Assembly: GCA_050124795.1 (NCBI GenBank)
Contig: JASFEO010000004.1
Coordinates: forward strand, 8,943 to 72,942
Reading direction: 5' to 3'
DNA: 64,000 bases
Source: Candidatus Pacearchaeota archaeon
GTDB taxonomy: Archaea; Nanobdellota; Nanobdellia; Pacearchaeales; GW2011-AR1
In this document: one piece after another, positions 9,061 to 56,245 of the stretch
Layout of the letters: each line of letters starts with the position of its first letter
How positions within the stretch are numbered: the first letter of the stretch is position 1
Made by a program: the position numbers and the translations under genes
Notes under the pieces: model-generated
Told to the model about the DNA's origin: nothing
What the model saw: only the letters and a program-made list of their open reading frames with translations
Database searches by the model: none

Positions 9061-10485
9061 TTAACCCTTAACAACTGTTAATGGTTTCAATCTTGCAACC
9101 TTCTTGCTTATCCCAAGTTCATCAACAACCCTTACAACCTCGTCGATGTCCTTGTAAACTTCAGGAGCTTCCTCTGACAAACTCTTAACACTCCCTGCCA
9201 TAACTTCAATTCCTTTTTTATGAAGACTTTCCTCCACACTCTCACCTTTAATATTTTTAATTGCCTTGCTTCTCGATAAAACCCTCCCTGCACCATGAAC
9301 AGTTGAACCCCATGTTAATCCTTCTGCTTTTTTTGTTCCAACTAAAACATAAGAAGAAGTCCCCATGCTCCCGGGGATCAAAACCGGCTGCCCAACTTTT
9401 CTATACTTTTCCGGGACTTCAATTCTTCCAGGACCAAAACTTCTCGTCGCGCCCTTTCTATGAACGCAAATTTTTTTCTTTTCACCGTTAATTTCATATT
9501 CTTCAAACTTTGCAATATTATGGCACACTTCATAAACAACTTCAATCTTCAAATTCTTTTTATCAAAAAATAATTTTTCCAATTCCTCACGAATCCAGTG
9601 CGTAATTAATTGCTTATTTGCGAATGCAAAATTTGCTGCAGCATTGTGCGCTGCCAAATAATCCCGCCCCAATTTAGAATTTATTGGCGCATTAATTAAT
9701 TCCCTGTCAGGCAAATCGCGAAAGCCATATTCACTTTCCATTTTTTTAATATAATCGCTTGCAATCTGATGGCCCAATCCTCTAGAACCGCAATGAATCA
9801 TAATTGTCACATTTCCTTTTTTTAAATTAAAAACTTCTGCAACCCCCTCATCAAAAATTTCATCAACATATTGAATCTCAAGAAAATGATTCCCTGCCCC
9901 CAAAGTTCCAAGCTGCCCGACTCCCCGCCGAATTGCTCTCTCAGAAATCTTAGTTGCATCAGCCCCATTCAAACACCCTTCCTCTTCAATATTAAGATAA
10001 TCCTCCTTCTTTCCAAAACCTTTCTCAACAATATATTTGCTCCCTTCTTCAAGAACTCTAAAAAATTCTTTTTTTGTAATATTAAATCCGCTCCCCCTTC
10101 CGACCCCCGAAGGTATTTTTTTATAAAGTGCTTCAACAACTTCTTTTTGTTTTTTTAAAATATCTTCCTTTGTCAAATTTGTTCTAAGCAATCTAACTGA
10201 GCAATCAATATCATAACCAACACCCCCCGGAGAAATAACTCCTTTTTCCAAATCAAACGCAGCAACCCCGCCGATTGAAAACCCATATCCTTGGTGAGCA
10301 TCAGGAAGCGCGATTGAATAATTCAAAATCCCAGGCAAACACGCAACATTTTTCACCTGCTCAATTGTCTTATCTTGTTTTATTGCTTCAAAAATTTTCT
10401 CAGACGCAAAAATCCTCGCAGGAACATTCATCTTCCCTTCTTTTGGAATTTCATAAATATTCTCAGAAATTTTTTTTATCTCCAT
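9061..10485 (-). CDS. rtcB: RtcB RNA (tRNA-splicing) ligase
   Basis: PDAHQGYG, GYDIDC, GNHF, HCGSRG, HRKGAT, PGSMG, HGAGR motifs. Confidence 0.97.
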   Translation of the reverse strand: MEIKKISENIYEIPKEGKMNVPARIFASEKIFEAIKQDKTIEQVKNVACLPGILNYSIALPDAHQGYGFSIGGVAAFDLEKGVISPGGVGYDIDCSVRLLRTNLTKEDILKKQKEVVEALYKKIPSGVGRGSGFNITKKEFFRVLEEGSKYIVEKGFGKKEDYLNIEEEGCLNGADATKISERAIRRGVGQLGTLGAGNHFLEIQYVDEIFDEGVAEVFNLKKGNVTIMIHCGSRGLGHQIASDYIKKMESEYGFRDLPDRELINAPINSKLGRDYLAAHNAAANFAFANKQLITHWIREELEKLFFDKKNLKIEVVYEVCHNIAKFEEYEINGEKKKICVHRKGATRSFGPGRIEVPEKYRKVGQPVLIPGSMGTSSYVLVGTKKAEGLTWGSTVHGAGRVLSRSKAIKNIKGESVEESLHKKGIEVMAGSVKSLSEEAPEVYKDIDEVVRVVDELGISKKVARLKPLTVVKG

Positions 10486-34323: not shown

Positions 34324-34368
34324 TAATTCTAAAGACAAATATTTAAACTCTAAATTTCTAATTTTCCT

Positions 34369-34440
34369 AGGCCGGTCGTTCAATGGATAGGATACCAGGT
34401 TTCGGCCCTGTTGATGGGGGTTCGACTCCCTCCCGGCCTG
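34369..34440 (+). tRNA. tRNA-Arg(TCG), no encoded CCA
   Basis: Acceptor AGGCCGG/CCGGCCT plus G73, anticodon loop TT-TCG-GC, T-arm GGGGG-TTCGACT-CCCTC; TTTAAA at 34342. Confidence 0.88.
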
Positions 34441-34545
34441 TAAAAATGGGTGAGAACCCCGGGTTCGATGAGCGATTTCGTGGTAGAATCATAATCCCAG
34501 TTGATTCGTGCGAGGTCGCGAACTTCCCTCCCGGCCTGTAAAAAT
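34427..34545 (+). repeat. 21-bp direct repeat of the tRNA-Arg 3' end; second copy preceded by an intron-like hairpin
   Basis: TCCCTCCCGGCCTGTAAAAAT at 34427-34447 and 34525-34545. Confidence 0.9.
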
Positions 34546-34548
34546 AAG

Positions 34549-35235
34549 ATGGTGAATTATCAATATACATATTTAATTGGAGTTGGAATTTATTTTGTAA
34601 TATGGCTTCTACTTTTTATCAAAAGAAAAGATACCAGAAAAGAAATGCTAATAATTTCATTATTATTTGGTTTAATAGGGCCACTCGTAGAAACAATTCA
34701 TATTAAAGATTGGTGGAAACCTTTAACAATCACAAACACCCCAATAGGCATTGAAGATTTTTTATTCGGATTTTTTATCGGTGGGGCAGCTTCGGTGATA
34801 TACCTTCACCTATTTAATAAAAAAATAAGAAAAAAAGATTCTAAAATTAATTTAAAGTTTAATTACTCAATACCTTTTTTATTGGCGACAACTCTTTTCT
34901 TTGGAAGTTTTTTCATTTTCAAATTAAATACATTTATCTCTTCTCTAATAGCATTAATCATCCCGATATTATTAATTTATTATTTTAGAAAAGATTTAAT
35001 AAAAAATTCTATAATTTCCGGGATTTTAATATGGATTGTTATGATTGTTGGGTACACAATTTTGGATTTGATAACTCCTGGATTCTTTGAAAAATTTTGG
35101 TATTTTGAAAATATCGGCAAAATAATGTTTTTAAAAATTCCATTAGAAGAACATATCTGGTTTTTCCTGGCCGGAGCATTCATTGGTCCGCTTTATGAAT
35201 ATTGGCAAGAAGCAAAATTAGTTAATGCAAAATAA
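34549..35235 (+). CDS. lycopene-cyclase-domain membrane protein
   Basis: Duplicated PIGIEDFLF / IPLEEHIWF motifs, multiple TMs; likely ATG at 34549. Confidence 0.7.
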   Translation: MVNYQYTYLIGVGIYFVIWLLLFIKRKDTRKEMLIISLLFGLIGPLVETIHIKDWWKPLTITNTPIGIEDFLFGFFIGGAASVIYLHLFNKKIRKKDSKINLKFNYSIPFLLATTLFFGSFFIFKLNTFISSLIALIIPILLIYYFRKDLIKNSIISGILIWIVMIVGYTILDLITPGFFEKFWYFENIGKIMFLKIPLEEHIWFFLAGAFIGPLYEYWQEAKLVNAK

Positions 35236-54983: not shown

Positions 54984-55643
54984 ATGATTAATAAATTATC
55001 AAAAGAATTAATTAAAAGAAAGGTCTATCACAAAATACAAGACAAGACAATCTTAACAAGAAAAACAAAAGTTTCAATACCTAAGATAAATAAAGATATA
55101 GCATATCTAATAGGGGTTATTGCAGGAGATGGTTCATTAGTTGCCACACCAAGGAAAAGAGGGGGCTATCACTATATCTTAAGAATTTATGCAGAAAAAG
55201 AAGAATATCTAAAACTATTAAACAAGATATTTGAAAAACATTTTTTATTAAAAGGCGGGATAAAAAAGGATAAAAGAAAAAGAAGTGCGTATTATCTCTT
55301 AATTCAAAATGCATCAATATTCTTTTATTTTGTAAATAATGGAAGTGAAATCGGCAAAAAACAAAGATTCAAAATCCCAAAGGCTATTCAAGAAAATAGA
55401 AGGTATTTCTTAGAATATCTCGCAGGTTTGGTCGATACAGACGGGCATATCGCAAGAAAAAGAGTCCATTTAAAACAAAAAAGTGAGGTCTTGTTGCGGG
55501 AAATAAACAAACTTGCAAATAAAGAAGGATTAAACTGCAACCTTCCAAAAGTAAATTATACAAATGAAGAACCATATTACTATATTCGGTTTGACAATAA
55601 AATACCCTTAAGATTTAAAACAAACAAATTTTTAAAGGGTTGA
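54984..55643 (+). CDS. free-standing double-motif LAGLIDADG endonuclease-like protein
   Basis: AYLIGVIAGDGS and EYLAGLVDTDGH, both acidic catalytic positions intact. Confidence 0.85.
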   Translation: MINKLSKELIKRKVYHKIQDKTILTRKTKVSIPKINKDIAYLIGVIAGDGSLVATPRKRGGYHYILRIYAEKEEYLKLLNKIFEKHFLLKGGIKKDKRKRSAYYLLIQNASIFFYFVNNGSEIGKKQRFKIPKAIQENRRYFLEYLAGLVDTDGHIARKRVHLKQKSEVLLREINKLANKEGLNCNLPKVNYTNEEPYYYIRFDNKIPLRFKTNKFLKG

Positions 55644-55656
55644 TTATTACTGATTT

Positions 55657-55942
55657 AAGCCTGTGTTGGTACGCCTGCATAGCTCAGTGGTAGAGCAAAG
55701 TGTTTTGAGTTTTCAAGAGACTCTGACTCGCTCAGCTGCCTTGTAAGCAGTAGGCCGGGGGTTCGAATCCCTCTGCAGGCTTGTACACATTCTTTCCAAG
55801 AATGTGTTAATTCTGAGGGATTCAAAGTCATGTAAACACAAGAGCAATTGATTCTCGGGGGCCGAACAACCTTGTGATAAAAGTATCGCCGGCACAGAAA
55901 CTTTGTGCAAAGTTGGGAGATAAAGGAATCCCCCACAGGCTT
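55657..55942 (+). ncRNA. candidate structured RNA enclosing tRNA-Thr
   Basis: AAGCCTGTG/CACAGGCTT terminal inverted repeat, several internal hairpins, TATA upstream, T-run downstream. Confidence 0.5.
55673..55781 (+). tRNA. tRNA-Thr(TGT) with a 37-nt intron at position 27/28 (55699-55735)
   Basis: GCCTGCA/TGCAGGC plus U73; BHB: GGTA/TGCC, central GAGC/GCTC, bulges AAA and AGC; splicing yields a 72-nt tRNA with ACTGC-CTTGTAA-GCAGT. Confidence 0.88.
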
Positions 55943-55994
55943 TTATATTCTAAACAAAATAAATCTTTATAACTAAGAACTTTCTAAAAATAAA

Positions 55995-56245
55995 ATGGCT
56001 TGGCAAGACATTTCAATAACAATAATTATTATTGCATTTAGTTATGCATTAACCCCTCAAATTTACCTTGGCCTTAAAGAAAAAAAGGTCTAATAAATCT
56101 TCAGACTTCAATTATAACTGCTCTTGGCATGTATTCTCTTGCAGTTATTTATACAACAATAAATCTTTTTGTCTCATCAATTCTGGCATTAACAACAGGA
56201 ATTCTCTGGACAATTTTATTTTTGCAGAAGATGATTTATAGATAA
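55995..56245 (+). pseudogene. PQ-loop/SemiSWEET-like 3-TM protein frameshifted at a 7-A run
   Basis: MAWQD..ALTPQIY..KEKK; one extra A at 56080-56086 continues GLINLQTS..LQKMIYR*. Confidence 0.65.

Follow-up and report, generated by a model that had tools for sequence, protein, structure and literature searches.

Sequence-related 'transposed' introns of transfer RNA (tRNA) genes were reportedly found in the Thermoproteales by Fujishima and colleagues in 2010. Integrative plasmids and viruses leave direct repeats (attL/attR) in the 3′ ends of tRNA genes, and tRNA-like shells are known from transfer-messenger RNA (tmRNA) and viral tRNA-like structures. Archaeal tRNA genes carry bulge-helix-bulge introns at canonical and non-canonical positions, and the idea that such introns transpose is raised in two reviews (PMC4090602, PMC4033280). 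The tRNA-Thr(GGU) locus of Caldiarchaeum subterraneum is described as heterogeneous and disrupted by the integration of a mobile element (Sugahara et al. 2012, PMC3293823). Small GC-rich palindromic repeats that are mobile are described in work on bacterial repetitive extragenic palindromes and miniature inverted-repeat transposable elements (REP/MITE; PMC3184786) and on the GC clusters of yeast mitochondria (PMC4478555). According to a 2026 preprint, the routes by which archaeal tRNA introns arrive are still open, with no general route in Asgard archaea (bioRxiv 10.64898/2026.10.13.758758). Here we analyzed a locus of Candidatus Pacearchaeota archaeon at positions 55657-55942 of a 64,000-nt stretch of DNA (hereafter the window; assembly GCA_050124795.1, contig JASFEO010000004.1, positions 8,943-72,942, forward strand), in which a tRNA-Thr(UGU) gene is bracketed by tRNA-like termini and followed by 160 nt of structured sequence, as a first-pass annotation had correctly observed. 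We consider it about 70% probable that the locus is one transcription unit composed of a working tRNA-Thr(UGU), a selfish intron-like cassette in its trailer, and the outer strands of an older allele. Coordinates are window positions unless a contig or locus is named, G-numbers denote related genomes and L-numbers individual loci; the features of the locus given below all lie on the forward strand.

We determined that the 160 nt behind tRNA-Thr are one copy of a repeated cassette family. A blastn search found three paralogues in the same genome, and an nhmmer profile of four copies yielded 15 matches at E ≤ 2e-4, plus two weaker ones at tRNA trailers. The alignment of the core and the pair counts reported below comprise 15 copies of this genome, and the covariance model built from the core (R1) recovered 18 copies, including that of the window at 55858-55924 (70.3 bits, E 2.3e-19). 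Fourteen of the 18 lie behind tRNA genes at distances of 21-170 nt and in the same orientation, one constitutes the anticodon-loop intron of tRNA-Gln(CUG), two split reverse-transcriptase genes and one has no tRNA nearby; truncated copies were additionally found behind two further tRNAs. The remaining tRNA genes, approximately 19 of about 35, carry no cassette. ARAGORN made 36 tRNA calls in the genome, one of them false (with introns allowed, a 'tRNA-Gln' with an 841-nt intron that sits inside the rtcB gene). The genome's own RNase P RNA (contig 17: 10284-10539) contains no insertion of the module.

Each reverse-transcriptase copy is split by a module whose loop contains a (CT)n run. The insert of 86 nt, accompanied by a 6-nt repeat, divides the Pfam RVT_1 match into 8-97 and 112-204, and its removal restores the reading frame. 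The two copies of this gene (L085 566-1722 on contig 2, and near contig 2: 38166) are 91.7% identical over 908 nt, and the duplicated gene may be part of a diversity-generating retroelement.

The core consists of two helices separated by an internal loop. P1 (8 bp; 55867-74/55908-15 in the window) was paired in 97.5% of cases, with both-sided changes in five of its eight pairs, and P2 (5 bp; 55880-84/55900-04) in 94.6%, with covariation in all five pairs. The observed covariation score was reached by none of 500 shuffles, and a control in which one strand was slid along the other gave 30-49% pairing. Between the helices lies an invariant asymmetric loop, UGGUA/GUG (TGATA/GTG at the window locus), and the apical loop varies from 13 to 30 nt (55885-99 in the window); GGAG follows on the 3′ side at 55916-19. 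One pair of P1 is a U-G wobble in 12 of the 15 copies, which indicates that it is the sense strand that folds. Readings of the core as a C/D-box RNA, an H/ACA RNA or a K-turn were rejected by eye because the box sequences and tandem G-A pairs are missing. Two small hairpins that had been pointed out earlier, GTGATA/TATCGC and GCACAGA/TTTGTGC, are indeed present in the sequence, but they are competitors of P2, and in four copies the changes are confined to one side of the pairs. Searches against Rfam, run on the whole window at the gathering threshold and on the locus at E up to 10, returned only the tRNA, the weak rows of plastid RNAs and long non-coding RNAs being attributable to chance; in agreement with the first-pass annotation, neither search gave a match to signal recognition particle RNA, RNase P RNA or a group I intron.

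Two copies could be folded by hand into a bulge-helix-bulge. The copy in tRNA-Gln(CUG), which must be spliced for the tRNA to work, forms the helix CTCT/GGAG with bulges GGT and ATA, in which cuts are predicted at GG|T and AT|A, and the short copy at tRNA-Arg(UCG) forms the helix TTCG/CGAA. The sense-strand structure, together with the one copy that needs splicing, points to life at the RNA level. Archaeal tRNA introns are comparable in that different tRNA genes share the core and that the tRNA-Gln(CUG) copy is a canonical intron of the anticodon loop with a bulge-helix-bulge; the inner tRNA-Thr likewise has an intron at 26/27, and EndA and RtcB are encoded. In contrast to such introns, most copies in this genome are located not in the mature tRNA but in a partial duplicate of its 3′ end, and further copies of the module reside in RNase P RNA or reverse-transcriptase genes or adjoin protein genes. 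The window core lies 77 nt past the 3′ end of the tRNA, and only one of the 18 copies interrupts a tRNA.

The anatomy of the cassettes carries footprints of duplication. Across the family, the elements behind the tRNA are, in order, a hairpin, the motif ATTCT, a segment complementary to the T loop and T stem of the host, TAAACTCAAGAA, a direct repeat of either the T-stem 5′ strand or the T loop of the host, the sequence (C)GAG, the core, then GGAG with about 3 nt, and lastly the host tRNA's 3′ end, repeated directly. At the window locus, this order is represented by a trailer hairpin of 10 bp with a 3-nt loop (55785-55807; most trailers have a hairpin of other sequence at the same place, as judged by eye), by ATTCT and the inverted copy of the host T loop and T-stem 3′ strand (GAGGGATTCAAA, 55810-55826, complementary at 11 of 12 positions to 55762-55773), by the conserved motif TAAACACAAGAG (55833-55844), whose family form was recognized by eye in trailers and in the cassette of G014, and by CGGGGG (55856-55861), a direct copy of the T-stem 5′ strand just before the core. 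Among the pairings in the sequence, the hairpin ACACATTCTT/AAGAATGTGT is complementary at 10 of 10 positions and TGAGGGATTC/GAATCCCCCA at 9 of 10.

The copied segments are specific to the tRNA concerned. A direct copy of at least 6 nt of the host T-arm 5′ part or T loop was present in the trailer at 14 of 15 loci compared, the T-arm copy being placed just before the core (by eye), and the unusual T loop TTCAATT (Val, Asp), like TTCGACT (Ala), is re-copied. Inverted copies specific to the host tRNA are seen in other cassettes as well as in that of the window. Exact re-copies of the tRNA 3′ end measured 16, 14, 13, 12, 11, 10, 9 and 9 nt at eight loci, the longest being those of Arg-CCU (16 nt), Arg-UCG (14 nt) and Ser (13 nt); repeats read by eye across the tRNA end in this genome reached 21, 17 and 15 nt. 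The distal copies at Lys, Pro, Cys, Asp and Thr are decayed. The orthologous tRNA-Thr of G014 carries a cassette with a different core and a 34-nt exact flanking repeat, composed of the last 17 nt of the tRNA and 17 nt downstream.

Such direct repeats of a tRNA 3′ end downstream of an intact tRNA resemble attL/attR. However, the inserts here measure 80-170 nt and lack an integrase (that of the window is 160 nt of non-coding sequence), the length of the repeat is variable (6-16 nt exact in this genome, 34 nt in G014), fourteen different tRNAs are involved, and there are additional inverted and T-arm copies.

Three further foldings of the cassettes were considered and set aside. The motif TAAACTCAAGAA has no flanking stem and does not form an anticodon arm. 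A reading of the distal copies as T-loop introns gave, by hand, a proper T arm only in the short Arg(UCG) form and not in Val or Glu, and no copy lay inside a T loop among 63 placed matches (18 in this genome and 45 in relatives). Most of the long cassettes read can be drawn as a three-way junction with TTCT/GGAG as its closing helix; these bases barely vary, and the related helix 4-6/74-76 was only 64% paired. At tRNA-Arg(UCG) (34368-34555), the short form of the cassette, with its core at 34464-34527, is accompanied by a 21-nt direct repeat that comprises the tRNA end and 7 nt downstream (by eye); the distal copy shows, by hand, a clean bulge-helix-bulge whose removal would leave the T loop TTCGATT (position 59/60).

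We then compared the distribution of the module among relatives. The R1 search (family f1) covered 60 sampled sister genera and found the core in 17 of them, with 1-19 copies each, and not in the other 43. A phylum-wide search gave no match in 140 other genomes at E ≤ 1e-4, under strict filters with 36 candidates scored per genome, by which weak relatives may be missed. When the locus was compared by blastn with the 60 relatives, only the tRNA exons matched, except in G014, the one genome among 12 relatives with a clear cassette at the Thr(UGU) locus. Contexts were counted at 44 loci of relatives, and flanking repeats over 45 matches with two controls. Four of the 44 loci are tRNA trailers, two are tRNA introns (Gln-CUG, Leu-AAG), one is an RNase P RNA and one lies antisense at the 5′ end of a tRNA, the rest being elsewhere; 37 are away from tRNAs. 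In the RNase P RNA of G008 (L040 1231-1652, 103.7 bits), the module is a 63-nt insertion in a P8-like hairpin. At another locus, it lies behind a protein gene whose end is duplicated over about 35 nt, and in G062 (L053 1501-1569) a 69-nt module sits in frame inside a methyltransferase-like open reading frame (ORF), which we take, from a motif, to be a methylated-DNA-protein-cysteine methyltransferase. The orientation was sense to the host gene in nearly all cases examined, with one exception (L047). Flanking repeats of 13-22 nt were found at 4 of the 45 matches, and none of that length in either control. The patchy spread, the varied hosts and the duplication footprints together indicate a selfish insertion module.

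These distributions also bear on the possibility that the module is a palindromic repeat at the DNA level, similar to REP/MITE sequences or GC clusters, that spreads independently of RNA splicing and, through template switching at its hairpin, produces direct and inverted duplications nearby. As with those elements, a short GC-rich hairpin has multiplied in an AT-rich genome (approximately 28% GC), sometimes within genes; it is dispersed in relatives, with the 37 loci away from tRNAs, the in-frame insertion of 69 nt and the copies behind protein genes with a duplicated gene end all being of the expected kind, and the inverted and direct target copies look like products of template switching. 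However, the module differs from those elements in that it is strand-specific, tolerating U-G pairs around an invariant loop, is biased to the sense strand and to stable-RNA genes, and duplicates the ends of its hosts. Because the tRNA-Gln(CUG) copy moreover has to be removed by splicing and shows the corresponding motif, we regard a purely DNA-level repeat as rather unlikely.

The same evidence must be weighed for a second possibility, namely that the cassette is transcribed along with the tRNA and functions as RNA, either as a cis-acting maturation or quality-control element in which an antisense segment pairs with the T arm, or as the source of a small RNA, stable and perhaps circular, to which a protein binds at UGGUA/GUG. 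Sense-strand covariation with a conserved U-G pair would be expected of such an RNA; all 14 tRNA-linked copies are co-oriented, each cassette has a segment complementary to the T arm of its own tRNA, no terminator separates tRNA and cassette, and the same module occupies the P8-like hairpin of one RNase P RNA. On the other hand, roughly half of the tRNA genes here manage without a cassette, as do most sister genera and most orthologous Thr genes, the module also splits reverse-transcriptase genes and sits in or after protein genes of relatives, and the distal tRNA-end copies decay. We therefore consider a functional RNA unlikely.

The outer inverted repeat, which had been taken to enclose the tRNA in a larger tRNA-like RNA, is real. 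Its arms, AAGCCTGTG (55657-55665) and CACAGGCTT (55934-55942), are complementary at all nine positions. In 56 of 20,000 shuffles, a 9-nt stretch of the 31-nt tail was complementary to one within the 40 nt preceding the tRNA, and a perfect inverted repeat of at least 9 nt arose anywhere in the 401-nt region in 37% of 2000 shuffles; thus, the placement of the repeat is unusual, not the repeat itself. The arms contain a 7-bp acceptor-type stem, GCCTGTG/CACAGGC, followed by a discriminator-like T. The two pairs by which this stem differs from that of the inner gene had been described as compensatory swaps, which would suggest selection on the outer helix. However, tRNA-Thr(UGU) of G033 (L015; GCCTGTG...CACAGGCTTTT) has GCCTGTG/CACAGGC as its normal acceptor stem. 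The first 8 nt of the outer 5′ piece match this gene at 8 of 8 positions and the outer 3′ piece at 12 of 12, and CCACAGGCTTTT is identical to the G033 tRNA-Thr and its terminator; most tRNA-Thr(UGU) genes of 12 relatives have GCCTGCA/TGCAGGC, like the inner gene. Since the natural acceptor stem of G033 equals the outer strands, the pair swaps appear to be inherited from a real tRNA allele. The 5′ relic would comprise AA and GCCTGTGTTGGTAC (55657-55672, a probable 14-nt leader that includes the 5′ arm) and the 3′ relic GAATCCCCCACAGGCTT (55926-55942, which includes the 3′ arm).

The signals that surround the outer pieces are consistent with this origin. A TATA-like box, TTTTTAAA (55629-55636, with TTTAAA at 55631-55636), lies at -30 to -23 of the outer start at 55659, or at -44 to -37 if measured from the start of the inner tRNA; in other tRNA genes of the genome, the last A of the box lies at approximately -24 to -26 of +1. 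A T-run at 55941-55944, which probably terminates the entire unit, stands behind the distal copy; immediately behind the inner tRNA, the sequence reads TGTACAC. In relatives, 7 of 10 cassette-less Thr genes have a T-run directly after the tRNA (by eye). The box and the T-run flank the outer pieces, which suggests that the promoter, the first 14 nt, the last ~17 nt and the terminator of the old gene still frame the unit, and from these positions a primary transcript of about 285 nt is plausible. At the tRNA-Thr(UGU) of G019 (L022 ~1426-1580), an exact copy of the gene's own first 14 nt is followed by a 62-nt insert and then by the tRNA; this locus has the same downstream gene as that of the window, and its promoter is spaced for the upstream copy.

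A live second RNA in the outer strands, whether a multi-intron tRNA or a chargeable tRNA-like shell around tRNA-Thr, would account for the perfect 9-bp helix, the discriminator-like T, the T-run and the promoter spaced for the outer start. The TTTAAA box, the T-run and a rise in GC content reported for the locus are all in the sequence (GC 0.43-0.50 across 55650-55949, compared with 0.22-0.34 in the flanks, in 100-nt windows), and the outer helix is part of the minimum-energy fold of the 289-nt stretch (-100 kcal/mol, z = -3.38). However, only one tRNA was detected in 55500-56100 at E up to 10, with no second D arm or anticodon arm, and the candidate T stem GGGGG/CCCCC is split by 68 nt that include the core (67 nt). 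An upstream complement of at least 7 nt to the cassette 3′ end was found at none of 14 other cassette loci screened in this genome, the G014 cassette has no outer-type 5′ strand, and none was seen by eye at 12 Thr loci of relatives; the pair swaps, as described above, are explained by the G033 allele. Similarly, tmRNA and viral tRNA-like structures share with the locus an acceptor-like helix of distant 5′ and 3′ ends and a T-arm-like 3′ part, but here the helix lacks family conservation, an intact T arm and an Rfam match, and derives from a relic gene. We accordingly find a live outer RNA very improbable: the earlier observation of nested ends stands, whereas neither its interpretation as a tRNA-like shell nor the proposals of a chargeable non-coding RNA and of a multi-intron second tRNA find support. 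Judged by these alignments, the outer 'shell' is a relic of an older allele and not a selected helix.

A similar residue is described for the Caldiarchaeum tRNA-Thr(GGU) locus, where the 5′ remnant of one allele adjoins an intron-bearing allele and the gain of the intron is linked to an insertion. The pieces there are separated by a 1.8-kb element that encodes a recombinase; in the present locus, by contrast, all pieces fit into 290 nt, a recombinase is absent, and it is the live gene that is enclosed by the relic.

The inner gene has the features of a working tRNA. The Rfam model RF00005 matched 55673-55781 (109 nt) with 48.6 bits, compared with a gathering score of 29, over model positions 1-71. 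Combined with a manual parse, this gave exon 1 (positions 1-26) at 55673-55698, a bulge-helix-bulge intron of 37 nt at 26/27, read by hand, at 55699-55735, and exon 2 at 55736-55781, with the anticodon TGT at 55742-44 and the discriminator T at 55781. The splicing motif (hBHBh′, by hand) has the central helix GAGC (55693-96)/GCTC (55730-33), bulges AAA (55697-99) and AGC (55734-36), and an outer helix of 55689-92 with 55737-40. Cuts behind the second base of each bulge, after 55698 and 55735, excise the 37 nt and leave a standard tRNA of 72 nt, whose sequence ...GAGCAACTGCCTTGTAAGCAGT... is that of the intron-less gene of G003 from the D stem to the anticodon arm; the tRNA-Thr of G014 has a single difference from the spliced product, at a base of the anticodon loop. 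Encoded in the genome are the splicing endonuclease EndA (contig 11: 19984-20238; PF01974 match, 103 bits) and the ligase RtcB (9061-10485, minus strand, 560.8 bits), besides the RNase P RNA mentioned above. Maturation would then comprise RNase P cleavage, removal of the 26/27 intron by the splicing endonuclease and RtcB, trimming of the 3′ end and CCA addition. ARAGORN parsed the locus as a Thr gene at 55708-55782 and as 'Ser(tga)' with a 17-nt intron, both of which are mis-parses when compared with the Rfam span and its intron.

The 3′ end of this intron, 55723-55735 (CTGACTCGCTCAG), is a 77% copy of the tRNA 5′ region 55675-55687 (CTGCATAGCTCAG). This segment provides the strand that pairs with the 3′ strand of the D stem in the splicing motif.

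The only enzyme gene neighboring the window cassette is a free-standing two-domain LAGLIDADG endonuclease gene upstream (54984-55643; Pfam LAGLIDADG_3, E 9.9e-13), whose 3′ end overlaps the TATA-like box and whose link to the cassette is putative. Two of the three LAGLIDADG paralogues of the genome lie directly 5′ of tRNA genes with a cassette and are oriented like them, the second being L086 3-677 (contig 11: 9702-10376); of these two ORFs, one spans the TATA box of the tRNA and the other extends into the tRNA itself. The suggestion that the RNA is a component of the LAGLIDADG element did not hold, since the same cassette follows 13 other tRNA genes, of which only one has a LAGLIDADG gene beside it.

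From these observations, we propose the following course of events. An inner gene of the G014 type, with its cassette, would have replaced the middle of an older gene of the G033 type, of which the outer 5′ 14 nt and 3′ ~17 nt would remain. The core lies in an incomplete duplicate of the host gene's 3′ end, with an inverted copy of that end preceding it, and it would be rendered harmless either by being spliced out, as in tRNA-Gln(CUG), or by lying in a duplicated, dispensable gene end behind an intact tRNA; the cassette RNA would then be a mere by-product. Conceivable routes by which the module may move, all of them conjectural, are template switching, reverse transcription and endonuclease-induced repair. 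It is possible, although doubtful at present, that the family shows archaeal intron movement caught in the act, the same module being a spliced tRNA intron, an insertion in RNase P RNA or mRNA, or parked in a duplicated T arm and acceptor end, with recombination between the duplicates converting trailer cassettes into T-loop introns and vice versa; in the same way, a whole foreign Thr allele might have been placed inside the resident gene, perhaps with the help of the LAGLIDADG genes that adjoin two cassette-bearing tRNAs.

Several points weigh against our reading of the locus. No transposase, integrase or other mobilizing enzyme is tied to the module, and both reverse-transcriptase genes are themselves interrupted by it. 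Of the 45 matches in relatives, 38 have no flanking repeat longer than those of the controls, and no clean bulge-helix-bulge could be drawn by hand around the window core. The replacement of an allele is drawn from one relative (G033) with an outer-type stem, and the limits of the transcript, its processing and the fate of the trailer are predicted from sequence. Moreover, strong covariation and the invariance of the internal loop are likewise compatible with a functional RNA, and as 14 of 18 copies are sense tRNA trailers, a role in tRNA expression could be envisaged.

We found no description of the cassette family in the literature, supplements being outside that search. For annotation, the locus illustrates that relic tRNA ends can mimic nested or tRNA-like RNAs and that a program such as ARAGORN may mis-parse an intron-bearing gene, here twice. 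For the biology of the family, one sequence group joins a genuine spliced intron, insertions into ORFs and other stable RNAs, and cassettes with duplication footprints of the host gene end. Because young copies carry long exact repeats, these are concrete, datable events that can be studied, and insertion behind many tRNA genes may show how tRNA genes become interrupted.

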